A DNA stretch of 64,000 nt from Haplodiscus bocki (lineage: Eukaryota). This document shows, one piece after another, positions 4,297 to 64,000 of the stretch (within the stretch, counting starts at the first letter, position 1; every line of letters begins with the position of its first letter). Below the pieces are notes generated by a model. That model saw only the letters and a list, made by a program, of their open reading frames with translations. It searched no databases and was not told the origin of the DNA. The position numbers were made by a program, and so were the translations under genes. The stretch is from positions 101,556,001 to 101,620,000 of the forward strand of contig OZ296648.1 of the NCBI GenBank assembly GCA_965655095.1, in the 5' to 3' direction.

Positions 4297-7200
4297 CTCC
4301 AGTTTTTTTGGCTTGAGTAATAATTTATGCTTGAAATTTTGCTATTACCGTGTTTTCGATGAACTTGAACAATTATTTGATCTTCTGGATGTTAACTTCA
4401 ACGTAATTGGTTGTTAACATAATTGATAACAAGTTAAAGTTTACATTTCAGGCGTTAGTTCAGCGCCTCAAAGACCTTAAAAACCATTGGAAGATCAAAG
4501 TTCCTGATATGTCAATTTTCAGGATACCGGAAAGCTCAAAGGCCTCAAAAATTAGATTTCGAAAAAATTGAATAATTGAAGATATTCAAGACAAAGCTGT
4601 TGAGATTGAAGGCATTGATGGTTCTTTGATTTTTGCATAATTTAGGGTTACTTGAAAGAGTTTCAAAAAAAACAAGAAGCGTCGAAAAGTACACTGCAAA
4701 AACGGTGCTCAATTTACCTGTGGCCAGAATGTATTTTGGGCCCACATGCGGCTTAACTGCGGCTTACCTACATGCAACGGCAGGTAAAATTACACGCAAA
4801 TTTGCGGCAAGTATTACTTAAAATTTACAGGTAATTTCACCTGTCGTTAATTTGCAGGTAATTTTGCTCGCAAGTCGCATGCAATTTTACAGATAGATGC
4901 CGGTAAAAGTATGTTAAATTTTTTACATCGTGTAAAACTTCGCGCTAATACCTGCATTTTTTCTTTTTCAGAAAAAACTGGTTATTGGAGAAAATTGATA
5001 AAATATTTAGTGGACTCTCGTTTGAAAACCATCAAGAGAGAATACCTCTGTGGGAAGGGGAAAATCGAACTCCCTCGTTAGCGAAAGGTGAGTTTAAAAT
5101 AGGAAAATATCCCCAGTTGACCCAATAAAATGACATTTTAATGTCGGAATTTTTGAGAAAATCAATTTTCTATACAATTTACCAATCAATGCCACAATAT
5201 ATAGTCAGTGTAGAAAAATTTTCATTTCTGAACTGAGAATGAGAAAAAAGGTGAAGAGAGAGTGAGCGTTGCCGGTTCGTCTTCCGACACCCTAGACTAA
5301 GTCGTAGTAATGTCTCAGCGAGACACATGGACCAATCTCCTGCTAGATAATTTCCGCGGAAAAATTTACGTGTATCAGCCAATAATTTTAACTGCGGCTG
5401 TCAGGCAATTTTGCCTGTGCCATTTTTACTGTGTACAATCAAGTAATTGATCTAAGTATTTGTCCAAGTCTTATAGACCTGCAATGCTCCAAAATTTGAA
5501 TGTCTTGAAGGAAATAGTGACTCTGCTGAAATGCACAGTTCAACTGAGTTTAGAGAAAGTTTCTTATCTAGCGCGATAAGAAATTAGCGCGAAATTTCTT
5601 ATGTAAATTTGACTTAATTGTTACGCAAACTGCGACAAAATTTCGAATTGAACTCATGCTCAATTGCAGCAGATTATGATGTTGTGTAGCTGTTCTGTTT
5701 GAGTCCATAATTGCTTATGAAGTTTAGTAGATAACTTTCTATCATTTCTCGAATAATTTGGGATAATTATAATTATACCAAAGTATTCTAGTAATCATAA
5801 AACATCAAATTATGATTATCCCAAAATATTTGAGAAATCATGAAACGTCATCTACGCAAGTCATTAGCAATTATGGACTTTAACAAAACAACTAGACCCG
5901 ACGCATTCGAAGTTTTTGGAATTCTTGAATAATTCAAGTTATGAAAACAAGATATGAATGGGTGTCGGTCTTTCTCCTTTGACCTACCTCAGAGAAAAAG
6001 TGAAAATTTCGCGCTGAAAATGCACCTGAATGATCGTAGAAGGGTCTTTCGATCCCATTATAGAATATGACTTTTCCATTAGTTTTTGGAGTCAATGTGG
6101 AAAAACATCGAAATGCTGTAAAATGTTCGAATAACAAGACATTTGCCCGAAATCAACCATTTAGAACAAACATAGGTGCGACTAACCTTACCTCTGGGCT
6201 TTGGGAAAACAGTTTGAATAGCACCCCGACAAAATGAAGCAGCATTGATTTATTGTTCGTCTTTTTCATTGGAGGAAAATGCCAAAACCCCGCCAAAAAA
6301 CTGGAACAATGCATCATCCATTTATTTTTTGGCGGAAACCACATCTTTCTATAGAAAAATTTCGATATCAAAAAAAAATCACCGATTGCTTCTCTACAAA
6401 ATAGGCACGCACCACTTCCAGCAGGTCACAAAAGATCTGTCAGCAGCGAGGGTATGATATTTCAACGAAAACTTTGACAAAATTTATCAGAAAACCCTGA
6501 AAACACGCGAATTACACGAATTTTTGAATTAAACAGACACATCTTCGAAACACTTTCAGGATCAAAATATAGCACCGGAAGTGAAAATCAGCGGATCGCA
6601 GTCGTACACCGGCCACAGACTTAAATATGTCAATTGAGGTAAAACTTTTGCGCCAGTTCTAGAAATTTTGGCGTAGAGATTGAACTTTTGGAGAATAGCG
6701 CCAGAACAAAACGGCTGACCACCAACCGAGCATTTTCCTCACTTCAAGTATGTTAAAAGTGCTGACAAACTGGCTACCAGATGCTCACGAGGATCCTTGT
6801 CTCGGATTATTGATTTCCTCGTAACGTCTCATTGAAGCATGATTTAAAACCTTCATGAGATCATTCAGCCATTCTAGCTGTCTGGTCAAAGGATCTTTTA
6901 CTGCTTTTTACTGTCCTGTTGCCTCCATAGACGTAACGGGAGTTTCCTGGGAATCATTGTAACTGTTCATGTCCAATGCTGTGTTACCGTTCAGGCTATT
7001 AGTCTTGTCGTCAATGTCGGTAGTGTTAACTTCTCTTACTAGTGTGGCTCATAAGACTCGAAGACAATGTGTTTTGATTCATGAAATGAATGAATTGAGA
7101 GAAGAGGTGATAAAACATAGTGTAAGGAATACACAATGGAATTTGTAAAAGTTAACAAAAGGAGAAATTTACTTTGGAGAGTTTTATCTTCGCAGCAAAT

Positions 7201-16613: not shown

Positions 16614-17476
16614 TCATGAAAAGAAAAAGGTAGAATCTTTGACTCTCTCTAAATTCAAATCTCCTCTCTCAGGTATATTTCTCAAATGCTTTTCCAGTTT
16701 AATTTTCAAATCAGGGTCTTCAACTTTGGGCACCAAATTCTCTAGCACGTAATTTGATAAATCGTTCAGCAGAGGTAGAGAATGAAGTTTGATGAACTCG
16801 TCTCGGCAAATTCGATTCATTTCCTCGACAGAACAAGCGTGAGTCCAAAAGCAGTCGTGAACGTGAACAAATGACACTCCGTTTTTGAAACAACTGTGAC
16901 TGGTCAAAAGCATGTGAGCTGCGTCTAAGCAATGAATGTAATTGGGAGCAAACGCGTTTCTTTGTTTTGTACTGTTTGGTTTGTTTTTCAGGGTAACTAT
17001 GCTACTATTACCACAATGCAAATATTTTCGAGTGGCTTTTTTAGAGTATGGTTGTACGATAGGTAGACCCAAAGGCGAGACCCATTCTGTGAAAATTCCT
17101 GCTTCAGATAAGTACCATGCCATGGTTCTCAGCCACTGCTTGATTTTAGCAGTAGCTGTGAACAAATCTTGAACGCCGTCGAACACCTGTTTAGTAATGT
17201 AGGAAGCAGATGTGTAGAGCTGTTGGCCTTGAAGAGAAGAGGCGTCTTTCAGTTTGGATTGTATTTGTTGTCTACCTCCGTAAAAGGTGACCCCGTATAC
17301 TTGGGTCATGACCGTTTGTTTGACAACCTTTCGATTAATCATCCCTTGGAGGTTTTTGCATATCTCAACAAACTGTTCACACTTCTCAAGCTTTCTCTGC
17401 TTTTCTACAATGTCGCTCACTGCTTGATAAACATCTTGCGGCTCATCACCAGGAAGTACATTCACTTGAACAGCAC
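16614..17476 (-). CDS. POLRMT: Mitochondrial DNA-directed RNA polymerase (T7-like single-subunit), exon 2 (C-terminal)
   Basis: Motif B RKVVKQTVMTQVYGVT, FAPNYIHCLDAAHM, motif C HVHDCFWTH and the characteristic C-terminal FFFS-stop. Acceptor tttttag| at 17477; joins exon 1 in phase 1 to give ALGRDSEGAVQVN. Confidence 0.96.
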
Positions 17477-18218
17477 CTAAAAACAAACGAACGTTCAGAG
17501 CTCAAGTCGCAATCCGGCTAATTCCTAGCCCTGGCGACCGCATAAAATCGTATCAAAAACAAGCAATGCCAATTAGCCTGATTTCAATACATTATTTCCT
17601 TCACAATCGGTTCAAAACTGAATACGAATTAAACAATTATCCGAACTGTGAAGATACGAATTAACAGGATTCTACTGTATAAGGGGGGATTGTTAAATGG
17701 AGGAAAGGATGCTAGACACAAAAACACCAAAATTGGGCATTTTCTTTGAAAAAATTGGAGTAATCTTGGATTTATTCTTTACAAAAATGGCTTAAAGCCT
17801 CTTCATCCAACCCTCTAGAACACAGGGGCTTTCTAAAATATGGGTCAGTTTTTTTGGTTTGGTCATAAATTCTCACTGAAACTTTGACGTTTTAGCGGTA
17901 CAAAAAAACGAGTCACTGCTAATAGTTGGCTTTTTACCGCAGACTAAAAATCAAACTGAACAAAGATAAAATTTGACAACAAAATCACAAAGCTCATATG
18001 TAGGTTTCCAACCATCTACTAGATAGGCACGTATTCATAAAAAATTGTTCAAAATAAATAAAAATCGGTTTTCTAAAAATGTTTCGAGCCATTAGTTTGA
18101 CTAAAATTCCGTGTTTCATCCTTCATTAAAAAATGGCTACTAAACACAGCAAAAATGCTAAAAGTTGAGTAAAACATAGCATGAAAAATCGAACACAATT
18201 CTAAACTGTGGCCATTAC
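17477..18218 (-). other. POLRMT intron (742 bp, GT-AG, phase 1)
   Basis: G|GTAATG donor at 18218 and tttttAG acceptor at 17477; spliced CDS is 4146 nt, a multiple of 3. Confidence 0.9.
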
Positions 18219-21200
18219 CTTCGCTATCTCGTCCAAGAGCAGCATAATGTTGTAGACCATTGCAAGATCCGTCTTGGTGTATGGGTAGATGAGACACATA
18301 CTTTGCTATATCTCCACTTTTCACTGCATTTGATATCTCAAAGCAACACGCAAGACATTGGAAAGGCTCGTCGAGAGTTGTCCACCATCGGAATCCAGAC
18401 AGAGGCTTGGCAGCACTGTCCAGAATCAGATCCATGTGCGAGTCAACATACTGAAGTCTATCAGAATACCCCATCCTCTTGCAGTTCCCACTCAAACTAG
18501 CAAATTGAAGTTTCAGCCACATGAAACCAGTTTCACCCAGCGGTTTACCCTGAGCAAACATAAGCAGAGCTCTTGTTTTGTCATCACCGATGTGATTGAA
18601 CACAGGCGGAATGTCGTAGCAACGCCCTCTGAAATCCATATTACTCGGAAACCAAAACGCCTTCTCGTTCTTCAGACGATCAGCGATTGACAACTGGTAC
18701 AGTAAACTCATTCTCAGCCCGTAATTGTCAGTTTCAGCTTGTTTTAGTTCTTTTGCGCGCTTAAAAATTTGTAATTCGTTGCCTTTCTTGGGAGAACTGG
18801 GATGATTTTTCTCCAGATGAAGACGCATATTTTTCTGATCCAACGGAATATCTAATTGTAAATCTCCGCCGCTTTTGAACAGATGAGAAACAACATCAAA
18901 AACTTGTCTGTTAATTCTCCACGGCACAGATGAGAAGGTGTAAACACTGTCGTAGATTGCATCCATGTCGGGATCATTCACAACAACTTTCTTGAGAAGT
19001 GCTTCTTTCACCAGAGTCCACGCCTCGCTAGACATTCCAATACGCATAAACTGACAAGGACTCACAAGGTAGCCGCCGTGGTTCTGACTGCACCATGGCA
19101 CTGGAGGTACCAAAGTGGGTATACAAGTGGCCAACATTTTGATCTTCGACCTATTCGTTTCACGAGCCATTAGCGTGAAAAACAAATGAGGGTACACAGT
19201 CAAATGTGTTCGGGCAGCTATAGTGGCGCTTCTAGCCCCTGTGTACGAAGAGTTCTGGGTGATGTAGCGAAACGACAGACATGGCAGAGACCTCCAGCGT
19301 GAATTTCTACTGTGTACATTCTGGTCGTTTTCGAATCCTCTGAGAGAAAACTTTTCAGCCACGTTTGTTGGAACTTGACAATGTTTAAGAAGAATTGTGA
19401 TCAGCAGACGGCACAGCTGGGAGCAACTTTTGGCAGACCATTGGCTCGGAAAGTCGTGAATTCCAGGTCCCAGTTCGCTGTATTCATTTTGCAAACTTAT
19501 CCATTTATCACGAGCACTAACCTGCAGACTCTCATCTTCTTCAAAAAACAGTTTTGCAAATTTTGGATAAATTATATCCAGTTTCTCCATGTAGCGCGTT
19601 CTCATAAGATACTGTTGATAAAAACTGTTAAACAAGAATTGTTCAATTTGGTTGCTGATTTCGAAATGAGGCATGGCGATTTCGTTAGCACCAATTGTCA
19701 GCGCAATCTCAATCAAATGGTCGACAAGAGCATTCAAATCTATAACTTGCAACACCTCGTAGAGGTCTTTGTCGAAAAAATTTCCCCGCTTTTGCAAATG
19801 AAGAGCTTCTACAATTTCGTCCGTCATCTTGCGATGCCAGTCTTTCAACACGTCATCTATTTCTCGCAAATTCTGCTGAGAACTTCTCTCTTTTCCTTTT
19901 AGAGAGCGCCCCTTTTTCCCATTGGTCGTTTTCGCAGATTGCACATCACAATCTACAGCTTCAATAGATGTTACAGGTACATTTACAAGGTTTTCATACT
20001 TAAGTTGACGATGATAATTGTGTATTAGTTGGTCGTATGTTAGAATATCGGTCAGTTTATATTGAGGTGGAATTTTATCTGAGCTCATAGGAACACAGAT
20101 ATCTTGGGAAGCTATCATGCTATAACGTTTGAAGAGCTGTTCCTGTGCAGCGCTCTCAAAACGTGGAAATATTTTGTCTACTTCCAGTTCTACTTCATAA
20201 AGTTTTGCCAAACGTGGCAAAATATTTGAGGCGAAACTTTGCAACTCGCCCATTGAGAAGCCTTCAATGTCACTCCATCCAATTTTCCCGTGGCTCATTA
20301 TTTGTTTGAGCAACTCTTTTCCTTTTCCGCATTTATCATTACATTTACCCAGAAGTGTTAAACTGGAAACAAGGAATTCCAGAGATGGTGTCAAATGGTC
20401 TCTAGAAAGCAGTTCCAGGGCCCAATCTACGTAAGAAACTCTTGGGTCTGCCAAACCAGCGTGTTTGAAAAACAGGCAAAATATTTGTTGGTATTTTTCG
20501 CTTTTCAGACTGCTGCAGTCAAAAGAAAGATCTACCTTCCGAATTCTTTCAATATAAAACAATCGCTTTCTGAAAGCTGTCGTGATAATGGGCAGAGCCA
20601 GCGGTAGTTTGTTGGACATGATACAAATCTGAGTTCCAATTTTGGCATTTTCAAAACATCGCTCAATTGAGTCCACGTTCTTAGCGCAGAAAAACAACGC
20701 TTTTCTTTCAGCAGATCCTAGCATTTCATCGTTTAGACATCTTACCGCTTTTCTCAGAAGACTCATGTCGAAAGGTAGAAGTTTTGGGTTGCTTTTTTCT
20801 TGCGCTTGCAAAATAGTTGCTGTCCGCTCAATGTCTTCTTCTGAAACAAGTTTTTTATCCTCGGTGTGATCACGCATATTCATCGCAAACAGTTTTCTCT
20901 TCAAGCTCTTCACACTAGTATCTGTATCGACCTGCATCTCTTTCATTTTGCCCCTCACGATTCTTCTACTGGCCTGGAATAACAAACTCTGCTGATAAAT
21001 TTCGAACATTTTCTTTTTGTTATACGTACTCGATGCTCGAGGTACATTTTCCCTTGTGGCCGCAATCCCCTCAGACAGCCGTGTGCTTTCACCTGTTACT
21101 ACGGGCTCAATTTTTCCACAAATAGCAGCACTGGTTTTGCGCCCACGGCGCTTTTCTTCCTTGACATTATTTCCCCCAGATAATATTCGATTGCAATTCT

Positions 21201-21501
21201 CAAATTTTTCCTCAACAGCATCAACGTTTTCCGACTTGGGTTTGATGTTAAGTTTGCCATGCATTATTACCTGTGATGACTTGCAAACCACCTGAATTTT
21301 TGAGAATGCAGAAAATTTTCTGGCAAGAGGAGGAACCAAATTGCTGCCTTCAGGGCCAGTTGGAGGACAATTGCCGCCATGTTGAAACAAGTCGCGTCTA
21401 TTTCGAGTGAAAGAAGGTGACAAGGTCCTACTTCGAAGCAATTGTGTAGTCTGAGCAACACCCCATTCTGAACTTCGTTCACATAAGCGAAAAAGTCTCA
21501 T
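18219..21501 (-). CDS. POLRMT: Mitochondrial RNA polymerase, exon 1 (Arg/Ser-rich presequence-like N-terminus, N-terminal domain, motif A)
   Basis: PTLVPPVPW, VPWRIN, FWFPSNMDFRGRCY, FAQGKPLG...WLK, WWTTLDEPFQCLACC and motif A PIHQDGSCNGLQHYAALGRD; N-terminus MRLFRLCERSS... resembles a mitochondrial targeting peptide. Confidence 0.96.
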
Positions 21502-22831
21502 GATGCGACAACTTCATTTCACCTCAAACCACAAGAAACCGAACTCCAAATGTCAAAATCGGCAATCGATTGAAACCAAAGTTATGCCAAGAGTCTGTAG
21601 CAATGCATTGCACCGCTACTAGTGAAAAGGACGCAATTTTGCCAGCGAAGCGGTTTAGGGGCTCAAAATGCGATCACTTAACGAAAACTGAGGTGCTACT
21701 GAAAACTCATCATTATCTTTGAATACAGCCGATTAGCGGTTGTTTTTGTTTTAAAAGCAGCATTAGGAATCAGTGGTCCACAGAAAAGCGCTATTAGCGG
21801 AGTTGCAATACACTGGTCCACGGTGAAGACGTCTAACTCTTAAAAGTCCCAATTTGTCAGCTTACGTTCTGCAGTATTTTAGCGATTGGTGAAATAGCGA
21901 CCGGAACAGTTATAACAAAGTGTTTCACATTCAAATTTCAATCTTTCGTGCAACCTCAAAAACTGATTGGCAGCGAGGCAATTTCGGTTGAACCAGTGCT
22001 TTCTTAGAAAGCTCTTATTTTTCATGCGCTAAGGCTGTGCAATTAATGAAAATTGACTTTTAATTAAATATCAATCAAGTACTGAAGCAAAATGTCGATT
22101 ATCGATGATTATCAATCACTGTTATTGCGACATTCAAAAAAAGTTTTGAAAACGTACACTATATACTGGACAGAATGGATGCATTTTGAACCCGTATCCG
22201 TAAAACACGTTTTTATCAGTGCTTATTAGTCTACATTTTTCTATGTCAACAAAAGAAATGGTGAATTTATGACTTGACTTTAGTCCAGTGATTGCAAACT
22301 TCGCTACTGAAACTCAGCAATTTAAAGTTGAAATTATTTAAAATAATAATCGAACTTGGTTTCGATTGTCAATGCTTTTTCAATCAATCCTCTATTAGTT
22401 CGTCGGACATCAATTAATCGCACAGCCATATCATGCGCAATAAATAAGCAATCGTGATCTTTCGACTCGTTTTCGCCTGGCATACCACTTCATCTGTGAT
22501 GTACGTTAATTATCGCTCAAAAGTACGTTCATTTCTTGCCCTTAAGTCAATAAATCAATCACATAAATGCAACACATAATAGTCAATTCGATATCGGTCA
22601 TAGGTCATAGCAATACATTTATTTTCAATTCACATGAAGTAAAATGAGGTTGTCAATTGGACTGATTGAAAAGAAGGAGCGAGTGAAGAATCAGTTTCCA
22701 GGGCGGGGATGTTGATTTATGATTAGAAATAGTCAAACAGATAAGTATAAGTCAACCAAACAGATACGTGGTTTAGCACTCACACGGGTTGCTAAGGTTG
22801 CGACCAATGACACAACGCATCATTGCTTTGT

Positions 22832-23542
22832 CTACCGGAAGAGAAAGCTGTAAGGGTATCCTTGATACTTTCCTCTAAAAATGGAAAGGAGCAAGCTGAA
22901 GAAGACAGTGATGACAATCAAAGCGCCTACCACCATCACTCTTCGTTTGCCCACGTCTTGTCCTGCACCACCAGAGGAACTGGTGCCAAATTTGCTGCCA
23001 GTTGCACTTTCTCCAGCAGGTGTAGACTCCGTTTTGGGCGCAGGGGTGGATCCCGATTTGATTAGAAGGATAAACCCAAACGACACCAAACCGTTCAGCA
23101 CTAGAATGAAGTGGGACTCAGCAATGAACTGTCCTTGGCTACTTCCATGGATGTAACTGATTTGTCCAGTCTGAGGGTTGCGGTGTGCGAAGGGAGGTCC
23201 GCGCATGTGATTCCACATCTGGCCACTAGTCATTGCCAAGATTGCCATTAGACAGATGACTCCCCACAGCTTGCTATTATAGATGAAATCGAGATTATTG
23301 CGTTTCATGAAAAGAACTCCGGCGACAATGATGAAGAGCAAACTCATGGCAATTGTTCCTGAATAGTTGGGTGGTCTAAACACTCGGATTTGGACCCCAG
23401 TTCGCTCCAACGCCCATTTAGCGATGCTCTCAGCGCTGAATCCGAGCTTCTGCATCTCAAACGTGTCGTCACTCTTTCGCTTTCCTTTCGGCGGGAAATG
23501 AATGATGACGGGCGCAGAGTTTAGATTCATCATTTGGAACAC
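22832..23542 (-). CDS. MAGT1: MAGT1/TUSC3 (OST3/OST6 family) oligosaccharyltransferase subunit, exon 3
   Basis: [74 protein letters not shown]; four TM segments; acceptor ttcag| at 23543. Confidence 0.95.
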
Positions 23543-23715
23543 CTGAATCAAAATAAGCTGAATGAACAAATTAAAATTCTTTTCAATTTATTATTTTCCA
23601 TCCAATATTCCATTTAGGAAGGAAAATCATTTGTTCACATTTTACCTAAAATTTGCCAATCGCACGATCGTCTAATTGTGCCCTGTTAGCATAAATAGCA
23701 GGAGTGATCGAATGC

Positions 23716-31724: not shown

Positions 31725-33170
31725 AATCTTGTTCAGATCATGTGATGGAACTTTCAAGAGTTCTTGATAAATTTGACTGGGAACATTATGTAATTTTGAA
31801 CTTCGGTTTGTTTTATATTTGAAATTTCTTGTTTCTCTTGATCACTTTTTGAGATTGGTGACATCAAGATCATTTGCTAAAATATTATTGAGGTCTTCTA
31901 AGTTTTGCGTCAAATCAAGGAATCAACAATACACGAAGCAAAATTAGACTTCATGAGATGGTGACCTGGATTGGTGCCTTCACGACAAACCATCACTATT
32001 CCGCAAAACAAACTTCAACTTGAAGCTAGCCTTAAAACTTGGAACGAAAGTGCGATCTTACAATCCATCAACAAGTGGCGAAAAGGAATTGGATTAAGAA
32101 AGTTGGGAACCATCAATTAGTTTAGTTTTCAGAGAGATGTCCAGGGTGAGGCAATGCGGGAAGAGCAATCTGACTGGCATCTACGGAGGTGACCGTACGA
32201 TCAACCAGGACGGATTCCGAAACCGCTCATTGGCCTCGCGATTATCGACCTTGCTGTTCGCTGCAGGAATATTTGGGAGCGCTGCAGTCTTCTTAGTGAA
32301 GTAGGGAAGTTTCAAAAAGGAGGGAAGTGTCAATCTTGTTCAGATTATGTAAAAGAACTTTCAAGAGATCGTGATAAACTTGACTGGGAACATTAGGTAA
32401 TTTTAAACTTCGGTTTGTTTTATATTCTACATTTCTTGTTTCTCTTGATCACTTTTCGAGATTGGTGACATCAACATCAGATGCTGAATTATTATTCACG
32501 TCTTATTAGTTTTGCGGCAAATCGAGAAATCAACAAAATACGAAGCAAAATTAGACTTCATGAGATGGTGACCTGGATTGGTGCCTTCGCGACAAACCAT
32601 CACTATTCCGCAATACAAACTTCCACTTGAAGCAAGCCTTATAACTTGGAACGGAAATGCGATCTTACAATTCATCAACAAGTGGCGAAAAGGAATTGGA
32701 TTACGGAAGTTGGGAACAATCAATTAGTTTGGTTTTCGAAGAGATGTCCAAGGCGAGGCAATGCGGGAAGAGCAACCTGGCTGGCATCTACGGAGGGGGC
32801 CGTACGATCAACCAGGACGGATTCCAAAACCGCTCATTGGCCTCGCGATTATCGACCTTGCTGTTCGCTGCAGGAATATTTGGGAGCGCTGCAGTCTTCT
32901 TAGTGAAGTAGGGAAGTTTCAAAAAGGAGGGAAGTGTCAATCTTGTTCAGATTATGTAAAAGAACTTTCAAGAGATCGTGATAAACTTGACTCGGAACAT
33001 TAGGTAATTTTAAACTTCGGTTTGTTTTAAATTTGACATTTCTTGTTTCTCTTGATCACTTTTTGGGATCGGTAAGATCATTAGTTGGTAATACAATATT
33101 GACGTCTTCTCAGATTTGCGGCAAATCAAGAAATGAACATTATAGAAGCAAAATTGGATTTCATGAGACT
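31725..33170. repeat. Tandem duplication with 607-bp period (~2.4 copies) inside the Polinton relic
   Basis: Anchor gataaa(t/c)ttgact(g/c)ggaacatta at 31766, 32373 and 32980; ~32140-32460 and ~32750-33060 are near-identical. Confidence 0.9.
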
Positions 33171-48049: not shown

Positions 48050-50900
48050 ACTAATCCTAATCAAATGTACCAAATGCATGGAAGTATTCAAGGAATCCTA
48101 TTTTTGAAAAGATTAACCCTGATATTCTTACACTTCCAAAAACCATCGTTTCTGCTAAAAATCACCTTATCAATGATTTTTTTTAATTTAACCACTATCA
48201 AAAATCATTCCTCGAATGGTGTTTTTCCAAATTTCTAACCTATTCACCCAGTTTCTAAGAAAGCACATGTTTATTTTGTAGGGACGGTCTTTATCTCTCG
48301 ATTGCTGGAAATCAAGCTGACACAAATCCGTTGTGCTATCTACTTTTTTTCCAATTAATTTTTTGATCGACCTTCCCTCTTCGATATGAGAAGTCAGACA
48401 CATTGCGTGATCTGAAAGAGACAACTGCACGGCGGTGGTTTCTGGTGCACTAAATGTTTTGGCTATCGCCACGTTTCATCCAGCAGTCTAAAGACTGGTG
48501 AAAAAAACTGCCAGCTTTATGGTTGCAAGAAAAACTATGCGGAAAATCAAACACTGCATCATCAAACTGCAGTCTCATCCGAATTTTCAGACCCTTGCTT
48601 CTAGACATTTCTAACAGACGACACAATAGGAAAAATTTTCGAAGATTACAACGAAGTTGTACACTGGAAACCCGTCCTTCTTTTCTCGGCAAAAACAAGG
48701 CAAGATACGAATTCGTCAACCAGCTCAACATACTCCTGCAACTTTTGACGGATAGAACAAGCCGGAGGAATGTCAGCAAGATGGCCACAATGGTATTACC
48801 GCACCTGGTTCCTGCGAAGATGAAAGATTCCTATGACGGATCGGTAGAAAAAACGATATCACGGAGAAAAGGCCAAGGAAAAGAGGCAGACATCCAAAAA
48901 TTGTCCAACGAAGCTAGGGTTCTCCAGTTTTGGTTGCCAAGAAACTCGAACAAAAACGATAACAGTGAGATGAAGCAGTTCAACAGGATGATGGGTGCGG
49001 GTTAAGAACCCTAGTGTCATCGGTTAGTTCGCAGAAGAGCATTCTGTTATCACAGAATGTATAGCACAGGATCTCCTCGAACTCGGATCCAAAAAGCAAC
49101 TCTGCTTTGGACAAAAAAGCGCAACTGAGCCCATGCACTCACTCACCAAAAAGTTTGAAGAGAGCTATACCGAAGCACTTCTCCTATTGGAAGCAGAAAA
49201 TATCTTCAAATCGTTGAACCGCGAACTGGCGATGAAGAACTGCCAACTTCAGTGTCCCCACCTGTATCACCCAATATACAACTCCTACTCCAAAGCTTCT
49301 GCTCTGTTCGTCAATCAGAAGAAACTGCTGTCACGAGAAGACAAAACACAGGGCGACCCCCTCGCTATGACAGAGTATGGTATCAAAATTTTGCCGGTAA
49401 ACGAAAGAAAGGGAATGAATAAAGCAGCGGTGGTACGCATCAGCAGCAGGAAAGTTGAAGGAAGTGCACAACATACTCGACAACGTCAAAAAACATGGAA
49501 AAAACGTCGTATTTAAGGTGAAACCTTCAAAATTCCACATCGTTCTCGAAGAAGCCACCATCACTAAAGCCAGAACAGTCTTCCAGGGGACATCAATCAA
49601 TTCCACAGGTTTTTAAAGAGTCCTGTGCTTTATCATTGGAAACCAAAAGTCCTGTGAACATTACGCTTAATAAAAAGCAGACAAAGACAAAAACAGCATG
49701 AAATAATCTCAACCAGCGACCACATCGCCACAAAACACGTACTCTTGTCTGACAGATGTCCAAGAAAAACTGTTTTTCTTGTACAGATCAACACCAAACT
49801 TGGTGAAAGTGTTTGGCTAAAATGAGTAAACCCTCACGATTAAAGTCATTCCAGCCCTCGTAGACAAACCAACAATATCAGACGAGGGTCGGGATTTGTT
49901 TTCAGCACCACTCAAGATAGGCGGGCTAAACATCTGAAAACCAACAGGCCATTGCGATGAATATTTATGGCCTGAAAACATTGTAGAATACCTAAAAGTT
50001 GAACATTTTGGAAGCAACACGAAAACGAAAAGAAACTTCAGTTGAAATTGGACGGAAAAAACCTACAAGCGGAAAGTCAAAAAAGACAAACTACAGAAAG
50101 GCTAGTTGAAAAGAAACGCCAATTGGTTGAAGTGACCTCAGAAAAAAGTGCATCAAATTGGTTGAATGTCCTGCCTCTAACAAAATATGGCTTCAACTTG
50201 AAGAAGTCCGAATTTGGAGATGGATAACGCTTGAGATACGGAATTAAGCCCAAAATGCTATCTAAAACTTGCCCATATGGCAAGGATTTCACGATAGCCC
50301 ATGCACTGCATTGTCCTAAAGGTGGATATACACACTTACGCCACAGCGAAATCAGGGAAACCATTGCGAAAGTCATGAAAGGTGTGTACCACGATGTCGA
50401 ATTTGAACCTCTTCTTCAACCGTTGCAGGGCAAAAGCTTTGACAACAAGCCAACCACAAAAAAATAAGAAGCTCGGTTAGACATTAAAATGAATGGGCTA
50501 TAGGGACACCATTTAACTGGATGCTTCTCCGATGTGAATACCTTTCACCCGTTTGCCAAACGTCGAAAACGTTACGTGATTTCTACAAAAATCACGAAAA
50601 CCTGTTGAAAAAAATTGAAGTAGCAGCAACGCTTTTTTGGATGTCGAACAAAGCGTTTTTCTTCCCCACTAATCTGTTTAGGCACAGGTGGCTCTGCGCC
50701 CGGTGCAGCAAAAGCAATGCAACGACACGCGGAGCATAGGGAAAGAAGGTCGGAATCAATTGCCGACGCCATAAATTACTTCCAAAGCGAAGTGGGCCTT
50801 GCTCTTCTCCGTAGCTCGGTTCTTTGTTTGAGGGGCTGCCAATCAATAAAAAGGAATGAGCCACAAGAAAATTCAATTCGAACGACTTTTCCAAGAAGAA
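48050..50900 (+). mobile_element. Degenerate CRE-like non-LTR retrotransposon (RT plus restriction-like endonuclease)
   Basis: EAENIFKSLNR...CP, TQGDPLAM (RT), SASNWLNVLPL..GFNL.K.EF.D, RYG...CP.G..FT..HAL.CPKGG...RH.EIR (CCHC), ARLDIK (RLE) and C-terminal ALLRSSVLCLRG. Confidence 0.85.
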
Positions 50901-54056: not shown

Positions 54057-54570
54057 TTTAAGATCGAGCCGGTCGCAAGCTCTAAGATCGTACTTCTTTT
54101 ATGTTTCGTAGTGATTTCTTTAAGCCTGAGCGGGTATTTAGTATTCTCAAAGTATTTCAGAATCAATGTTCTTGTTGGATGCGAGGTCCCGCGGTTTGAC
54201 TTGCTACAAGTGATCTGTTCTACAACTCTTCAAGCTATCGAAGAATTGGTTAGTTTTGCAGATTTTTGAATTCAACTTTCTGTACTGCGTCGCCGCTTGT
54301 TATATATCAAATTTTATATGTGCCGAAGTTAATGATAAGAGATAATTTAAATCATGAGGTATTTCCGTAATCTGACATATTTATCTAAATTAAGCATCAT
54401 TATGACTCTAAGATGAGTTCTAAAGTTTGAGTTCATCGAAAGAATGTGCCGTCATTAAATGATTGAAGGGTGATAAAGAGATTAGGAGATTAGGAGTTTT
54501 GAGTTTAAATGGGCGTTCTTCTCAAATGGACTTTGCTTTCAGCATTCCGATCGTAACATGGAATGCTACA
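54057..54570 (-). repeat. Putative 3' LTR of the env element (left boundary approximate)
   Basis: Minus strand: polypurine tract-like AAGGAGGGTAG (54581-54571) immediately followed by TGTAGC at 54570; TATATAA at 54306-54300; older Gypsy RT coding resumes at about 54053. The second LTR is outside the window, so this is not confirmed. Confidence 0.55.
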
Positions 54571-55115
54571 CTACCCTCCTTGCTGTTACTTCGCCGCTGG
54601 TTACTTCATGAAGAAGGAGAAGTTCATCTGCTATGGAAGAAGCCAACCCAAACTTGCATTAGTATAATTCCACATTCCAAAACCAAAAGGTGTAGTCAAT
54701 TACAGTGTATTGTTTTCCAAAATGTATCCAAAACAGTAGAGTCTTAACCATTGTAGGAGAAAAAGGATATTGTATTCAGTTGAGATTCCATCGGATGTTT
54801 TAAGTGAAGAATATTCATTGTCCAAAGAAGAAAAATTGTATCCAAGAGAGCATCCAGAATAAATGAAGAGGGTATTGAAAATGTTGAGAAACCAAAGAGT
54901 TCATCCAGAATATGTGATGTAAAGATTGCCAGCACACAGTCTTCTAGTCCCAGAGAGAGTTTTATATTTTATAAGTTTATTTGCACCACAGTTGAAGTGA
55001 ATAAAATGAGTTCAGTTAAAGATAAAATGAAGTCAATAAAAATGATCCGCTTGAAAATTTAAGAGAAATGGTCCCTTTTCCACGGATTGGAGAAAAGACG
55101 TCCATTGCACAGCTT

Positions 55116-57442
55116 TTAATCGCAGCGAATGTCACCGTGTGACTTGTAGTGTTCAGGCACATCAGCTGCTCTATAGGTGTAATGCGTATCTGCGTGCCGA
55201 GGAGCAGACGCGTGCGACATCGTGCGTTTAAGTGTTTCAGTCGCTGCATCAGTGGCGATTTGATTGAGAGTTTGCTGGGAGAGAGAGATAGTCCGAGCCA
55301 ATTGAGAATATTCACGGGGTGCAGTATCTACAACTGATAGTTGAGTTCCGTTTGACTGTTCGGGTTCAACAGCTGTTCGAAAATTTTTCGGACAGAATAA
55401 TCCGCACCAAAGTGGCGTCGCATTGTTGCGGTGTTTATATCTATGATATATCCAGACAACAATTACATGAAGCAACATTGATCCAGCAAATGATATCAAG
55501 CTCATCACGAGAGAGAGTCTGATAGAGAGATGGGAATCAAATTCCCTTGAGAGTGATGGACGCAATTGCGTCATTTTTGTCGTAATGGGGCGTGCTATTT
55601 CCAAAAGTTTTTTCGCGTCGCGCATTTTAGGGCTATCAAGTAGTGTTTCTCGCACTTTTTTTAACATTGCCATTCCTGCTTCTGCTTTCGTCGAATAATA
55701 AGGCATGTCATCAATTTCAGGAAGTTAACTCCACAATTCCAGTAGTGGGTCTGGAAATTTAACATTCACTTTAATCGCTTGCATTTCTTCACAAGTGCTA
55801 AGGTCTGACCGAATCTTTATATGGTCTCCTGACAATTGTTTATCACATTTCAGTTTTATAATACAAATGCGACATCCTGGATATTTAACAATGCCGGATG
55901 ATGTAGTTGACTCTGTGTCTGATTCAAATAAAGTATAAGCAGTAGTAGCAGACGTTATAAGCTAAACTCCATAACCTAATTTTTCTGTTTTTTCTGTTGC
56001 CGGCAGTACTATCTGCTCTGTTTCACAAACTTGTAATGCTGCCACGCTATCTTTGAAGTACAACGTTGCCAAACAGGAGTCATGACCTGTTTCTGTAGCA
56101 ATCATGTCTAGGCAAATTTGATAACGTGACGATCCAATGCATCTACCAAGATCATATTCAGTCAGAAATGCGGTTTTTTTTATTTTTTGATATCGGTAAG
56201 AAAGGCGCTTTGAATTTCCATTTGATTGCCAAATCTGGCTCCAGTTGATGTATAGGTACTGCAATTGCGCGGAAAACCGTGAACGCTGAATCTTTCGTTG
56301 CTAGTGGAATTGCAATGCGCATTAGGAGTCCTTGTTCAACCGATAAAACATCTCTAAGTAATTGCGATTCGTAATAAGCAATGTTTTCATCCATTGGTGT
56401 AGCTAATGAGAGTCGGTCCGATTTTCTCCATTGTTCTGATGCAACATCATCTAAGATAGCTAGAAGTGTTTGTCTAGGAACAAGTGACATCGGTAAATAG
56501 TTATTCGAAATTGGCTGTATCGAATTCATCATGTTAAATTTGTAAGTGTAAACAGCGCCTCGATAACTTTTGATGTTTGCAAATGTTAATGCAAGCAGCG
56601 ATGAGATTGTATCATAATTGAAATTAAATTGCTGTCTTGAGAATAAAAGTTGGTCACAATCTCGTAGTACATGAATATTATGTTGAAATACTTCAAAGTG
56701 CTCTTCGATAATTCTCCAGTTACGATTTTGGATTTCAAGCATTTCCTTTTGGACGGATTTAAGTGTTTCTACTTCCATGGTAATCATAAAGAATTTGTCA
56801 TTCACTTCATTTCGTAATTTGAAAACGTCCTGCGTTAGGCTTTCCGTAAATTCGCCAATTTTCTCTATATTGTTTGCATTTTGTTTTGCTCTGTCATGAC
56901 ATGATCCAAAAATATCTATTAATTTACAGCTACCGCTTCCTAAGGCTTTTCCGGATCCGAAAAGTCCGACTGATGCAAGCGCCATTATTGCAAGGGGCGC
57001 TGCCCTCGGCTTCCAATTTCGAGCTTGAGCGGTGGCGTCTTCAGTGTTCAAGAATGAGGAAGTATATATGCGATGAGCCTCAAGCTCTTTCTCTGCAAGC
57101 GTAACTTCGTTCTCAATTTGATGTAGTAACCAATCGGTATCGAATGTGGAATCATTTTTTTTTGAAAGTTTGTAGAGTAATCAAGATGACATTGCCAGCT
57201 AGACGCGTCCCATAAGGGTGCAAGTTTGTTAATGTAGGCGCCCAATTCGGCACTCACGTTCATTTCAAACTTTGGAAAAGGGACCAGAAAATCGACGTTC
57301 ATGAACTTTTCAGCTAAAAGTATTTTTGTAACATGATTGAAAATAATTCCATTTGCAAGAATTGCGCCAGAGTCCTGATCAGCGATAATGTCACATTTCC
57401 AGTAAGGCAGAGCGACATTTATGCCCAGTAGGACAGTAACCA
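55116..57442 (-). pseudogene. env: Envelope glycoprotein (class I fusion protein-like), frameshifted into 4 ORF pieces
   Basis: Hydrophobic N-terminus; RNWKPR|AAPLAIMALASVGLFGSG (cleavage site plus fusion peptide); heptad-repeat region (NIEKIGEFTESLTQDVFKLRNEVN...); Cys-rich ectodomain; TM LSLVMSLISFAGSMLLHVIVVWIY followed by basic HRYKHR and a cytoplasmic tail. Confidence 0.85.
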
Positions 57443-58329
57443 CTGAAAAAAAAACGTCGCTCAAAAAAAAATTATTTTTACGTCACTGTGCGAGTCACGG
57501 AAGAGAAACAAAACGACAGCCGGGAAATATGTTGTTTTTTTTGTTTTTTTGTTAGTTTTTGCTGGGTTTTGCTTATGTGTGTAAAAGGTATTCCGAGCTC
57601 TTCAGAGCTCGAAAAAAATGAGCATTCAATAGATCGTCCGAGGCTGGCCGTTCACTGTTGCCCGGATTCGACTTGTGTGGAAGAGCACTGTGTTTCTCGG
57701 GTGCTGGCGTTTTGTCAGCCTCAGGAGACCGCGGATGTGGGAGAGACTGGGGACAATTCTTGGCTGCTACTGTTGCTGCCACTGGGACTGCTACTCCTTC
57801 TATTCTGGCTTTACAAGTTTTGGTAGCGTGTTATGTCAAAAGAATCGGCGCAGTTTTTAACTCAGGAAAATGGGAAGCATAAAATGTAAAGCTAGTGCAA
57901 GAATTATGGCAGTCTTTGATTTTGTTTCGTGTTTAAGAACCAAGGAGTTTTAGTTACTGGAAATGTACCTAGCAATCTGTGTTTTTTTTCCGGTCGACAA
58001 GTATCAGAAGTAAAAAAATTACTGAAGGACGATCAAAACTTTTTTCAGAGAAAAGCCGGGGTGACAGTCCTGGATTGAGAACTTTGGGTCCAAAGATAAT
58101 CGAAAGGTGAGCTAAAACACGTGTTCGGCTTGGCTCAATACCGGTCGTAATAATTCAAAATTAAGAGTTCTGGCCATACGTTACGAAGGCTGGAAGTGTT
58201 TGGATAAGAAAGGAGCGAATTGAACCTGTTTTGTTTTTAATGTTTGCTTTATTTCTATTGGAGAAGATACACGGAAACTCGTTGGGCCAGCAAAAACGTG
58301 AATAAAGCTGCCCTGTAGGGTTTAACTGA

Positions 58330-59307
58330 AACAAATTTATTGGCGCTGGGATGGATATCTGTAAGGAAATTAGATGGATCTAGTTTGAATTCATGGCATG
58401 CAGTTGCTGAAAAAATGCTAGAAGGAGGAATGATCAATTTTATTCGGAATGGATTGCCTACTATTCTAATTATTATTGAGAATCAGCAGCTCTTCAAAAT
58501 GAAAAGTGGTTTTGTATAAAAAGTGAAATCAAGTATTGATGCGTCACAGTTGTTGCGTAGAATTGAGAGTCACCATGGGTATACGAAAATATCCAGTGGT
58601 GATCTCGAATTCACCAGTCAGTTCTCAGCATGGTCCTTGTCAGTTGATGGATTAGTGGATTATGAAAGACCTTCCGGGCTGCATTTGACTAAGTTGGATG
58701 CTATCGCTTCGTTTGGTCTATGGTATACTGGAGGTCACGTGGAAGCAGGAGGTGATGATAGTATCACTCATGTCCCAATAGGGAAAAAACTAATGATCAT
58801 TGCTGAACGTGGGTATCACTCGAGATTATTAGAGAAGCTCCTTCAAAGTACGAAAGCGTTAGTAAACTTTCTACTAAAAGGGCCTTCAACTAATGCTGTT
58901 CAAAATAAGGTAAGGTTTTATGTGACTACTCCGACTTCACTAATGATTCAACCTGGTTTATCTGCTCATACGGTGATAGCGCTCTCTGAAGGGCCTGCTA
59001 TAGTCGCTGGCTTTGAAGCTAAGCTTTTAGAGGATGACCTGCGACAAAGACAAGTGCTCAATTATTATTCCCCTGGATGCGCAGAGAGACGAAATTCTTG
59101 GCCGTCCAAACGTGTACCTACACTACTCTATCTAATTATTTACGTGATACTGGCGGAGTAAGACAGAGTTTGGGCAACATGTGGAGTGTTTCAAAGTGGA
59201 CGGACAAATTTTTGGTAGGGGCCAGAAAGGTCGAAAATCACGGCATCAGAGAAGAACAAATAATCTCCCGAGAGTGCAAAAGAAAGCTGCACGCATGCAA
59301 GAAATGA
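58330..59307 (+). pseudogene. JmjC/cupin-fold Fe(II)-2-oxoglutarate dioxygenase-like gene, antisense within the env element (core ORF 58523-59161 open)
   Basis: WYTGGHVEAGGDDSITHVPIGKKLMII ... LMIQPGLSAHTVIA gives the HxE...H triad with the T and K positions typical of JmjC. The frame extends upstream through a TAA at 58517-58519; apparent frameshift near 59077; AATAAA at 59445-59450. Confidence 0.7.
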
Positions 59308-60266
59308 AAAAAAGTAAGAGAGTGTTCGTGAGTCCTTTGTCGATACTGGTCTCAACGTAATGCTGTGTTGCACCCTATTTTGGTTAGTATTAATTGTATG
59401 TTGCAATGTGTTATAACAGGTTGGAAGCAGGCTGCCATGAGTGAAATAAATAAGAAACGGTAATTAAGCACCGTATCATGATTGTTATTATATCGCAAGC
59501 GGCAATCTGAGGATGCAACTGGTAAATACATGGATCAAAAATTTCTCTTGTTCCGAAAAAAAACGAACGCATGAAGCATTTAGAAAAAAAACAGAATAAA
59601 GAAATGAAAAACCGATTTTCAGAGGAATTTTGTCAGAACTCTGTGTTTTCAAATTTTGTCCCCCTTGAAGAGAGGTGAAGATAGGGATCCTATCCTCCAC
59701 CTATCAACGGCCAAACACCAGCTCTACCGAGCTTTGGTGGTGGATTTTTGAATTTCTGCCAAAAAGTTGAAAAAGAAGTGTTTGTTATCCGAAAAAAAAA
59801 CAGGTAAAAAAGACTCTTCGGCGCTGAGGTGTCGGAAGATAAAATGGCCTCGGTTTTTTTTATATATGTATGACGAATATTAGGCCATAAAAAGTGCTTC
59901 AAAAGAAGGCCAACAGGAGGGCGAAAAATCGTACATGGCGGTTTTTGTATTTTCGAGCACAAAATTGAGAAAAAGGTATGGTCATTGAGACTAGAAATTA
60001 CACACATATATATATATCATCAAGGTTGATGGTCTTGTTTGTCCAAAATTTTGCGAGGTCCGACTGCAAGTATTCAGGGGGTTGCCGTTACCATCTGACA
60101 ATTTTATCAGTGTCAGTTTTTTTCCAATTAAATTCCTTGTAGCGTCTCGTGCGATATAAGAGAAAACAAGGAAAATAAAGGTCATTTTTGAGAAAGTGTA
60201 AATTGAAAATTTATACTGGTAGAATGAATTAGAAAATTAAAGTTACTATGCAAAATGTTATTAGAG

Positions 60267-62008: not shown

Positions 62009-63634
62009 TTACTGATTAGGCGTTTTGAGCATTCCCTCAAAAGCTATTTTTAGTGCATTAGCCATGTGGAATATGTCCATTCGTGCTTTCTCGTCGTTCG
62101 GATATTCTTCCGCGAGAAGAGTATTGTCAAGGTTGGAATTCACGTGGATTTTCTGCAAGAAGATGTTGACCAGAATATCAGTATTGGCAAATAAGCACAG
62201 AATTATATTGAAAACTCGTGCCCATTCTAATTTATCAAGTCCACACCCGATTTGTGGTAAGTTGATTTCTTTAATTCCATACGTTAACATATGACTTTTC
62301 ATGCGACAGAGACTTTTTCGTAAGTTATAATAAGTCGGTTTATCATAATGTTTATTTTTTGTTACCAAATTGTAAATCCAATTGCCATTTTGGCTCAAAA
62401 AGTGCGCAATTAGAGATCCTGCCTTTAAATTTTGATAATGCGGGCGTAAGTTTTCCAATTCAGGGTATAGTTGCACAAATTGTGTAGCGATTCCTGCTGA
62501 CATTGCCAAATCATATGAAACACAGTGTCCAAAAATTGCGGTTTGGCCTCGGAATAGGTCTCCCTGTAAAATTTGATCATTTTCAGGAAGGTCAACACTT
62601 TCAATTGAATTAGCGCACATATTCAGTTGAAAACTAGCTGAATAAATGTCGTTAGACGGAGGAGGCTGTCCTCGATTAGAGCGTTCGGGATATCGTTTTT
62701 TCAAAATAGACTTCTCTGGTGTCTTATTTATGTTAGGAACTGGGATCATCGATTGTGAAATATGTCTCGTTTTTTGTGCGGTTTTTACTATTATTGTGCG
62801 TTTTTCTTGTTTTGAGAGCGGTAGCTCTAATTCTTGCTGATTTAGAAATTCATAGTAACCTCCTTCAGTTAGTGCTCTTCTCGTGGGAATGTCCCGAAAA
62901 TGGTCATAGCTATCGAATCTAAGTCTCTGCCGTGGCGGAATTTTTGTTAATGAACTATGAGATGCAATAGGTATTTGCGACTGTCTGGTCATCCGTTGAT
63001 GACGCGTAGGATCTTCCGTCGACAATGCGGCCCCCTCGTCAGTTTTTGTAGGATAGGTTCGTTCGGTCGTCGGAGAGAGCTGAGAGCTTGTGGCGTGTAC
63101 CTGGATCGGGTCGTTTAGGTATTTAGGTTCAAGAAAAATTTCGTCGGCCAATCGTCCGGTATCGTCTGATCCGGGTACGGGTGGTGGTGAGAACGGGGGC
63201 ACCGTGTCTGCCTCTTCAATAATTGCGGCTGGCTCTGCAGTTGCAGCAGACGCTGGCTGATCTGTCGTGGCTGGCGTTATTACACCACGTATTGTGTGTT
63301 GCACTTCGTCTGTTCTGTTATGTTCAGTCGTCAGAACTTCTGGGATCTCGATGATGTCCTCGTTTAGTGAAGTTTCAAGCGCTTCATCAAAGATTTCGTG
63401 CTCAGATCGATATTTGCCCAACGAAGGGTCAGGTGTGAAGTCTTGTTGTGTTACACTAATGTCTTCTACGTCATAATTAGGCGTTATCGGTCTTAGTCTT
63501 ATGCGGTGGACGCATTGCGTGTACGGTGTACCGATTTTTCTAATCAAGTAGTTCGATTTAGTCAAGACTTTTTCCATTTTGTATAATGAAAGCCATATAG
63601 TGCAAGATTTGGCTGCAAAATCACTTTGTGTCAA
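62009..63634 (-). CDS. Pol C-terminal region: integrase tail (GPY/F-like), Pro/Thr/Glu-rich linker and TARG1/OARD1-like macrodomain (~62158-62578)
   Basis: WLSLYKMEKVLTKSNYLIRKIGT...VHRIRLRP; macrodomain GDLF...GHCVSYDLAMSAGIATQF...IYNLVTK..YDKPTY..L..SL..MK......I..INLPQIGCGLDKLEW. Confidence 0.88.
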   Translation of the reverse strand: MTQSDFAAKSCTIWLSLYKMEKVLTKSNYLIRKIGTPYTQCVHRIRLRPITPNYDVEDISVTQQDFTPDPSLGKYRSEHEIFDEALETSLNEDIIEIPEVLTTEHNRTDEVQHTIRGVITPATTDQPASAATAEPAAIIEEADTVPPFSPPPVPGSDDTGRLADEIFLEPKYLNDPIQVHATSSQLSPTTERTYPTKTDEGAALSTEDPTRHQRMTRQSQIPIASHSSLTKIPPRQRLRFDSYDHFRDIPTRRALTEGGYYEFLNQQELELPLSKQEKRTIIVKTAQKTRHISQSMIPVPNINKTPEKSILKKRYPERSNRGQPPPSNDIYSASFQLNMCANSIESVDLPENDQILQGDLFRGQTAIFGHCVSYDLAMSAGIATQFVQLYPELENLRPHYQNLKAGSLIAHFLSQNGNWIYNLVTKNKHYDKPTYYNLRKSLCRMKSHMLTYGIKEINLPQIGCGLDKLEWARVFNIILCLFANTDILVNIFLQKIHVNSNLDNTLLAEEYPNDEKARMDIFHMANALKIAFEGMLKTPNQ

Positions 63635-64000
63635 TAACGAAGGGTTTAGTAGTAAGCAATACTGTTTTTGTACTAATGGTTTCGCTGCTGTTTTTTATCA
63701 TAGTAGGTTCGATATTTATGATAAGCATCTAATAAACGAGATTTGGTATGCGAAAACTTTTGCAGGAAAGAATCCTGCAAATCGACTAAATAGTCTCAGG
63801 TAAGTTCTTTTTGAGCGAGTGTATGACTTCTAGATCTCAAATCAATTGGTTTACTAGGCTCTCGTCATGAAATAAAGAACTAGGTGTGCATCCAATAGAT
63901 GATTGACACGAAGTATTGTGTATAAATGTTGCTAGGTCAACATATTAGTACCACGTTGTCCATTTCTCGTCTGTATTGAGTTTCAGAATCCCCTTCAATG
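63635..64000 (-). pseudogene. Gypsy integrase core, C-terminal part (disrupted), running off the window edge
   Basis: LKGILKLNTDEKWTTWY*YVDLATFIHNTSCQSSIGCTPSSLFH. Confidence 0.8.

Follow-up and report, generated by a model that had tools for sequence, protein, structure and literature searches.

Retroelements in the 1.5-Gb genome of Haplodiscus bocki carry a real family of genes with a predicted JmjC fold that is under selection and borne by the elements; these would add to the mobile elements known to have a 2-oxoglutarate enzyme of their own. One member lies at 58271..59390 (+) of the window, by which we mean the whole 64,000-nucleotide stretch of DNA analysed here; it resembles genes for JmjC-fold Fe(II)/2-oxoglutarate oxygenases and occupies the strand opposite to gag, pol and env of the surrounding element. 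An earlier note on this DNA had recognised the gene but overlooked the death of the window copy, the exchange of the gene as a cassette and a second lineage of elements in which the gene lies in the LTRs.

The window gene and its host element

The window gene sits inside a complete minus-strand Ty3/gypsy LTR element of ~15.56 kb that continues from the window into the next 10 kb (L031). A primer binding site was seen adjoining the 5′ LTR, and gag is followed by protease, RT, RNase H and integrase, the order of Ty3/gypsy LTR retroelements, to which the element belongs. The following features were identified in the window:

54076..54080 (no strand): 5-bp target-site duplication CAAGC, repeated at L031:5642-5646
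54081..54570 (-): 3′ LTR (TGT...AGA), one of two 490-bp LTRs, 95.7% identical to the 5′ LTR at L031:5148-5641
54571..54581 (-): polypurine tract ahead of the 3′ LTR
55116..57482 (-): env-like gene, here in three pieces
57400..60140 (no strand): exchangeable block; the DNA ceases to match that of sister elements with a different JmjC version between 57.4-57.7 and ~60.14 kb
58727..58789 (+): first active-site motif, with Thr(-3), His 58736-38, Glu 58742-44, Ser(+8), Gly(+15) and Lys(+17)
58946..58981 (+): second motif, Q-P-x4-H-x-V, with the distal His 58967-69
59445..59450 (+): AATAAA, candidate poly(A) signal
61621-61322, 61189-60911 and 60575-60270 (-): three paralogous accessory ORFs of ~100 codons between pol and the JmjC block
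62009..63694 (-): Pol C-terminus with a macrodomain-like end (Pfam Macro E 0.003, below cut-off); gag-PR-RT-RH-IN continue in L031

Since the minus strand encodes both gag-pol (L031 and 62009-63694) and the env-like gene (55116-57482), the JmjC-like gene is antisense to them and divergent from env, in the head-to-head layout that the earlier note had described. The macrodomain-like region at the end of pol spans 62009-62550 (-). Env-like frames comprise ~780-820 codons in many copies, and inspection by eye revealed a furin-like site, a hydrophobic peptide, a heptad stretch and a C-terminal hydrophobic stretch. These motifs suggest an env of the F type; Pfam and PDB sequence searches with this protein gave no match. 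The three accessory ORFs are 26-29% identical to each other and 86-93% conserved in a sister copy; two of them are broken in the window copy, and no family could be named for them. LTRs of this lineage (lineage 1) end in TG...GA, or TG...CT in a more distant subfamily, instead of the TG...CA found in lineage 2.

The codons of the metal triad, His (CAC, 58736-58738), Glu (GAA, 58742-58744) and distal His (CAT, 58967-58969), share a single plus-strand frame of 213 codons (58520-59161). The earlier note had placed these codons correctly, and both peptides that it quoted fall within the same frame. Its description of intact metal ligands is accurate for the triad codons but not for the gene, which is dead. 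Compared with a natural relative, the window copy has no start codon at 58271, where relatives begin, and it is interrupted by two in-frame stops (58316-58318 and 58517-58519) as well as by frameshifts close to 59075 and 59150. This copy is a pseudogene whose metal ligands are intact.

A protein search identified 28 relatives among 246 candidates, the best being a natural 372-residue protein 92% identical to the window copy. Natural relatives are single open frames of ~350-400 codons with no intron, in agreement with the intronless core described in the earlier note. When the last 12 residues were left out, 9 of the 20 closest full-length copies aligned end to end without an internal stop. We rejected a sequencing artefact of the whole family as the source of the break, since these nine close copies are open. 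The AATAAA that had been noted after the gene is present at 59445; AATAAA or ATTAAA occurred between -30 and +250 of the stop in 24 of 40 long frames by raw count, and is not a constant feature.

Other features were observed in the window and the wider genome. Three host genes with a long single exon lie on the minus strand, namely a phage-type (mitochondrial) RNA polymerase (16614-21513), an OST3/OST6 family gene (22832-23587) and an AMP-binding enzyme (3052-4341). The region 31725-33080 contains three repeat copies with 607-bp spacing that are ~90% identical. Degraded ORF pieces with the motif ALHCPKGG...RHSEIRE occupy 48500-50740 (+); they had no Pfam match, and we take them to recall a non-LTR or Penelope-like element. 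A histone gene array with a 4.6-kb period was found at G000:C4:15.6-16.3 Mb (L181-L194). Its H3 tail differs in 7 of 14 fetched copies (Thr3->Arg in two, Arg26->Gly in two, others near Ser28-Thr32), and these differences may be assembly errors or variants.

Predicted fold and active site

An ESM Atlas search returned JmjC clusters at 0.96, and a profile search over 1.84 billion representatives gave 217 matches at E 0.001 or better. The alignment used for fold prediction comprised 92 sequences, picked for length and spread from the 150 profile matches listed and from the first search. On this alignment the natural protein P0001 was modelled with a pLDDT of 90.9 and a pTM of 0.84, whereas the same protein folded on only 18 sequences reached a pLDDT of 41. 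The top Foldseek matches of the P0001 model were PHF2 (E 5e-9), ceKDM7A, KIAA1718, PHF8 and KDM2A (E 5e-9 to 2e-7, 10-16% identity), and KDM7/KDM2 entries filled the first ~25 places, ahead of FIH, JMJD6 and TYW5. VIA-align over 48,161 chains gave Z scores of 14.8 for ceKDM7A (rmsd 4.7, 260 aligned), 14.0 for KDM2A (rmsd 4.5, 247 aligned), 13.8 for PHF2, JMJD6 and JMJD5, 13.7 for TYW5 and 8.6 for AlkB. Five JmjC subfamilies (KDM7, KDM2, JMJD6, JMJD5 and TYW5) tie within ~1 Z unit; in these comparisons the JmjC fold is clear and the subfamily is not. The JmjC-type double-stranded beta-helix implied by the earlier note is thus predicted, with the pLDDT, Foldseek E and top VIA-align Z just given.

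Residues H156, E158, K173 and H233 are invariant in 20/20 cassette types (clustered at 80% identity), and T153 is present in 18/20, so the metal ligands named by the earlier note are conserved across the family. Of 53 open frames, 45 keep the complete metal triad, five end before the last His and three have lost a ligand. In the relatives' alignment (A2), the triad residues are kept in 72/85, 75/87 and 61/75 rows. In JmjC oxygenases Thr/Ser(-3) and Lys(+17) bind 2-oxoglutarate. The spacing of T(-3), GG(+4,+5), G(+15) and K(+17) is that of PHF8, the K(+17) spacing is common to JMJD6 and a host JMJD4-like gene, and the Glu ligand together with Ser(+8) matches host genes that we take to be of the KDM4/5/6 type. 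We consider it likely that the protein is catalytically active as an Fe(II)/2-oxoglutarate oxygenase.

Sequence comparison places the family far from known JmjC proteins. Searches against Pfam, proposed in the earlier note as a check for JmjC and Cupin_8, gave nothing above cut-off for these families: no JmjC match was obtained for lineage-1 proteins, and four of five lineage-2 proteins matched JmjC_2 at E 0.02-0.04 with 14-15 bits, below the cut-off of 22. PDB sequence searches gave no match to any JmjC protein. HHalign against one host JmjC placed the motifs in register with a probability of 1.5%. Among viruses, a search of a structure library gave a giant-virus JmjC as best match (E 2e-6, 11% identity) and no close relative, and no relative was found in viral contigs (query P0001) or metagenome contigs (query P0206). 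Pfam identified no PHD, CXXC, F-box, Tudor or zinc finger in the full-length proteins. The likeness to KDM2/KDM7 proposed by the earlier note therefore holds in part: the PHF8 spacing and the Foldseek ranking favour it, but the family cannot be assigned to KDM2/KDM7, since all 20 types carry Glu where PHF8 has Asp, the reader domains are missing, no sequence match exists and five subfamilies are tied.

Most full lineage-1 frames carry a basic tail with 10-16 K/R in 30 residues near the C-terminus. The patch is weaker in lineage 2 (7-8 K/R in 30), and net charge across the proteins ranges from -3 to +25. A weak match to Spp1 (PDB sequence search, E 0.008) was dismissed because it rests on the basic tail.

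Occurrence and constraint

The genome was searched with five divergent proteins, and because each search scored 100-128 matches of about 950-1230 candidates, the copy counts of JmjC-like genes are lower bounds. In all 50 fetched lineage-1 loci, chosen for varied JmjC, the gene is surrounded by element genes that run on the other strand; env sequence is present in 48 of these loci, and RT was found in 26 of 30 long stretches. Selection of loci by env gave the same picture: the best 30 of 40 scored, which include the window and are partly shared with the first set, all carry a JmjC gene within 1.5 kb. The version was that of the window in 14 and another in 16.

Pairwise dN/dS between cassettes had medians of 0.30, 0.35, 0.29 and 0.14 in rising dS bins to 1.0 (16, 38, 37 and 4 pairs, respectively), values that come from non-independent pairs and open frames only, with 1189 of 1330 pairs saturated. 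Constraint on the JmjC gene is looser than that on RT (0.09-0.13) or env (0.14-0.21). These ratios show that the JmjC-like gene is under purifying selection. The frame is present and constrained in other copies (50/50 and 30/30 loci, dN/dS ~0.3), as the earlier note's account of it would demand. We rejected a chance antisense frame, because no long frame on the other strand accounts for the gene and dN/dS is well under 1.

The earlier note had called the gene captured; the one host JmjC gene compared, as a candidate donor, was not detectably similar. Recent capture from the host was considered and rejected. Pfam JmjC gave six matches in the host, a search in which intron-rich host genes may have been missed. 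A group of homologues (P0119 and P0204-P0209) has no close match in this genome, which indicates that the family exists in other samples, beyond this genome.

Exchange of the gene between elements

Two elements, L073 and L081, are 98% identical in RT and 98% in env, and their JmjC proteins are 23% identical. Except in a 3.4-kb block, the two match at 93-95% in DNA. Both are young, judging by LTR pairs with identities of 99.7% and 100%. The exchanged block measures 2.5-3.4 kb, and in three of six sister elements ~100 bp covering the first active-site motif keep their identity inside the block. JmjC identity is below 70% in 79 of the 125 pairs whose RT is at least 88% identical, above 80% in 46 and between 70 and 80% in none; the loci were chosen for varied JmjC, so this biased sample gives no genome estimate of the share of swapped elements. 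For 22 elements, the RT alignment rejects the JmjC tree and the JmjC alignment rejects the RT tree (2000 replicates, below the program's advice). Taken together, the alignments show the JmjC-like gene behaving as a swappable cassette, traded as a block between near-identical elements. The versions are about 20-50% identical to each other, and saturated synonymous sites combined with dN/dS below 1 among close versions indicate that old versions are reshuffled, as opposed to a recent burst of change.

A tandem array at G000:C8:27574117-27601786 (L021-L030) contains 15 units ~1.93 kb apart, each including sequence equivalent to window 58795-59857, which covers the 3′ half of the JmjC gene and DNA beyond it.

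A second lineage with the gene in its LTRs

Distant homologues occur as same-strand pairs ~14.4 kb apart. In 6/6 fetched elements of this type (lineage 2), the homologue lies antisense inside both LTRs, within the first 1.5 kb, which is U3 by position. These LTRs are 3.3-4.1 kb long and 97.3-99.8% identical within a pair. Lineage 2 is also Ty3/gypsy, its RT being 21-28% identical to that of the window element, and it likewise has an env-like gene and a macrodomain-like region, placed ahead of integrase (L162, L165, L168 and L171). Two further loci are LTR-like, with no internal genes seen within 10 kb. At G000:C9:24542943-24572721, three same-strand lineage-2 JmjC matches 14.6 kb apart suggest tandem elements sharing an LTR.

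The lineage-2 JmjC gene has a dN/dS of 0.11-0.20. In a tree of 47 rows, rooted only for drawing, a branch with support 100/98 separates the lineage-1 from the lineage-2 genes, consistent with a long stay in elements.

Possible function and alternative explanations

We consider that the product most likely removes or alters a methyl mark of host silencing, either on a histone lysine or on a silencing protein, in the nucleus, and we put the probability of this reading at about one in two. The gene would have a promoter for its own transcription, which in lineage 1 would be divergent from env and in lineage 2 would lie inside U3; an internal env promoter has been shown for Oikopleura Tor elements (PMC4402516). 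The protein may then enter the nucleus by means of its basic C-terminal tail and oxidise a methyl mark or a protein of the silencing system, and the element would benefit as host silencing is undone, an effect that the earlier note had suggested. An old and deep pool of versions, presumably reshuffled by recombination between co-packaged RNAs, would be kept by conflict with the host. Observed/expected CpG ratios of 0.77-1.23 in host and element DNA hint weakly at a target other than DNA methylation. Three reports provide precedents for 2-oxoglutarate demethylases in mobile elements (PMC9289625, PMC12730594, PMC11244446).

The chromatin reading is weakened because JMJD6, JMJD5 and TYW5 tie structurally with the demethylases, because the protein has no PHD, CXXC, Tudor or zinc finger that would direct it to chromatin or to the element, and because an unchanging substrate such as the H3 tail by itself fails to explain versions that are 22-50% identical. 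JMJD6, JMJD5 and TYW5 are hydroxylases of proteins or tRNA. The same points suit an active oxygenase with a target outside chromatin, which we regard as possible though rather unlikely. It would hydroxylate or demethylate a protein of host defence, a factor for translation or splicing, tRNA or RNA of the element itself, in the manner of JMJD6, JMJD4, JMJD5, TYW5 or the AlkB of orchid gypsy elements. Such an enzyme would fit the K(+17) spacing shared with JMJD6 and the JMJD4-like host gene, and a fast-changing protein target would account for the many versions. These elements also have an ADP-ribose-type macrodomain, which points to chemical marks as a general means of defence. The Foldseek order, with KDM7/KDM2 before FIH, JMJD6 and TYW5, speaks against this reading, as does the match of HxE and Ser(+8) to the presumed KDM4/5/6-type host genes. 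An RNA demethylase is described in a gypsy element (PMC9289625), but the fold here is JmjC-type, with AlkB far lower. A non-catalytic role, in which the protein would bind methylated chromatin or a silencing protein, serve as a decoy for either, or sequester iron or 2-oxoglutarate, appears improbable given three metal ligands and a Lys that are invariant in 20/20 versions otherwise 20-50% identical. Its model would be Epe1, a fission-yeast JmjC protein for which non-enzymatic anti-silencing has reportedly been observed.

Rivalry among elements, or germline drive, would have each version act on cells or elements that lack the same version, so that rare versions are favoured. The coexistence of several versions in very young elements of one backbone agrees with this, as do the 16 of 30 closest env matches with a version other than the window's and the unexplained flanking DNA held in the exchanged block. 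The nine elements with ORFs listed have no conserved partner gene inside the block, however, and there is no direct evidence of toxicity or exclusion, and we judge this explanation to have a slim chance of being correct. That the gene is a neutral passenger, a chance antisense frame or a host gene picked up repeatedly without use is very improbable. The dead window copy and a dN/dS higher than that of pol and env speak for it; it is contradicted by the 30/30 env-picked loci, by dN/dS well under 1 in lineage 1 and lower still in lineage 2, and by the 20/20 invariant residues. Moreover, no long opposite-strand frame accounts for the gene, every examined locus lies within an element or LTR, and the well-supported branch between the two lineages fits long residence in elements.

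Returning to the counter-silencing reading, we tentatively propose a fuller form of it, in which at least two distant envelope-type lineages encode their own histone-mark eraser, from an undescribed JmjC family, and swap dozens of versions like effector alleles to outpace heterochromatin silencing. In one lineage the gene would have been transferred to the LTR, with the result that solo LTRs carry it too. Animal retroelements are usually viewed as largely passive in the face of silencing by piRNAs and heterochromatin. If the proposal is true, a JmjC gene that is under selection in retroelements, moves from backbone to backbone and has been copied to LTRs would directly counter this defence. 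The family also provides a large natural set of JmjC proteins that Pfam misses and that combine a common active site with 20-50% identity, which makes them useful for learning how substrates are chosen.

Comparison with known systems

Our literature search found no JmjC gene in a retrotransposon among the mainly open-access papers that it covered. In the main text of a survey of metazoan errantiviruses (PMC13524379), a word search gave no JmjC, demethylase, macro or antisense gene, and two reviews (PMC6431247, PMC9406493) gave nothing relevant. Errantiviruses in the wide sense (PMC13524379) and the Oikopleura Tor elements (PMC4402516) resemble the elements here in being Ty3/gypsy with gag, pol and env; in Tor3b/4b, pol and env are separated by a gap and env has an internal promoter (PMC4402516).

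Among JmjC proteins, the best fold matches are to KDM2/KDM7 (ceKDM7A 3n9l, KDM2A 2yu1, PHF2 8f8y and PHF8). PHF8 shares T-x-x-H, GG at +4/+5, G-x-K at +15..+17 and the distal P-x4-H-x-V with equal spacing. In contrast with KDM2/KDM7, the element proteins are 11-16% identical to them with no sequence match, have HxE in place of HxD and are without PHD, CXXC or F-box, and their genes are intronless, multicopy, element-borne and swapped as blocks. Like JMJD6, JMJD5, TYW5 and FIH, they consist of a stand-alone JmjC domain (Z 12.8-13.8) with K at +17, but they differ in HxE, in the basic C-terminal tail and in giving no sequence match.

JmjC genes are known from other genomic parasites. Published reports describe KDM4-like JmjC in Amoebidium endogenous giant viruses (PMC11244446) and JmjC ORF11/13 in LbFV (PMC5381508). 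These viral genes are similar in having only the catalytic domain and in their proposed action on host chromatin; unlike the element genes, they belong to large DNA viruses, are recognisable by Pfam and can be traced to a host subfamily.

The closest parallels in mobile elements involve other dioxygenases. Phalaenopsis Ty3/gypsy elements carry an AlkB-type m6A demethylase whose activity was shown in vitro and which was read as counter-defence (PMC9289625). They share with our elements an extra 2-oxoglutarate dioxygenase ORF in a Ty3/gypsy backbone, but that enzyme is AlkB and not JmjC, and it represents a recent capture in a plant with close host homologues. The family described here is animal, env-bearing, ancient and exchangeable. 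In fungal DNA transposons, TET/JBP dioxygenases occur in several lineages and have moved among them, with anti-silencing proposed, and that study found none in retrotransposons (PMC12730594). These elements and ours are alike in that 2-oxoglutarate enzymes are present in several transposon lineages and have moved among them; they differ in that the fungal enzymes reside in DNA transposons and have DNA as their substrate.
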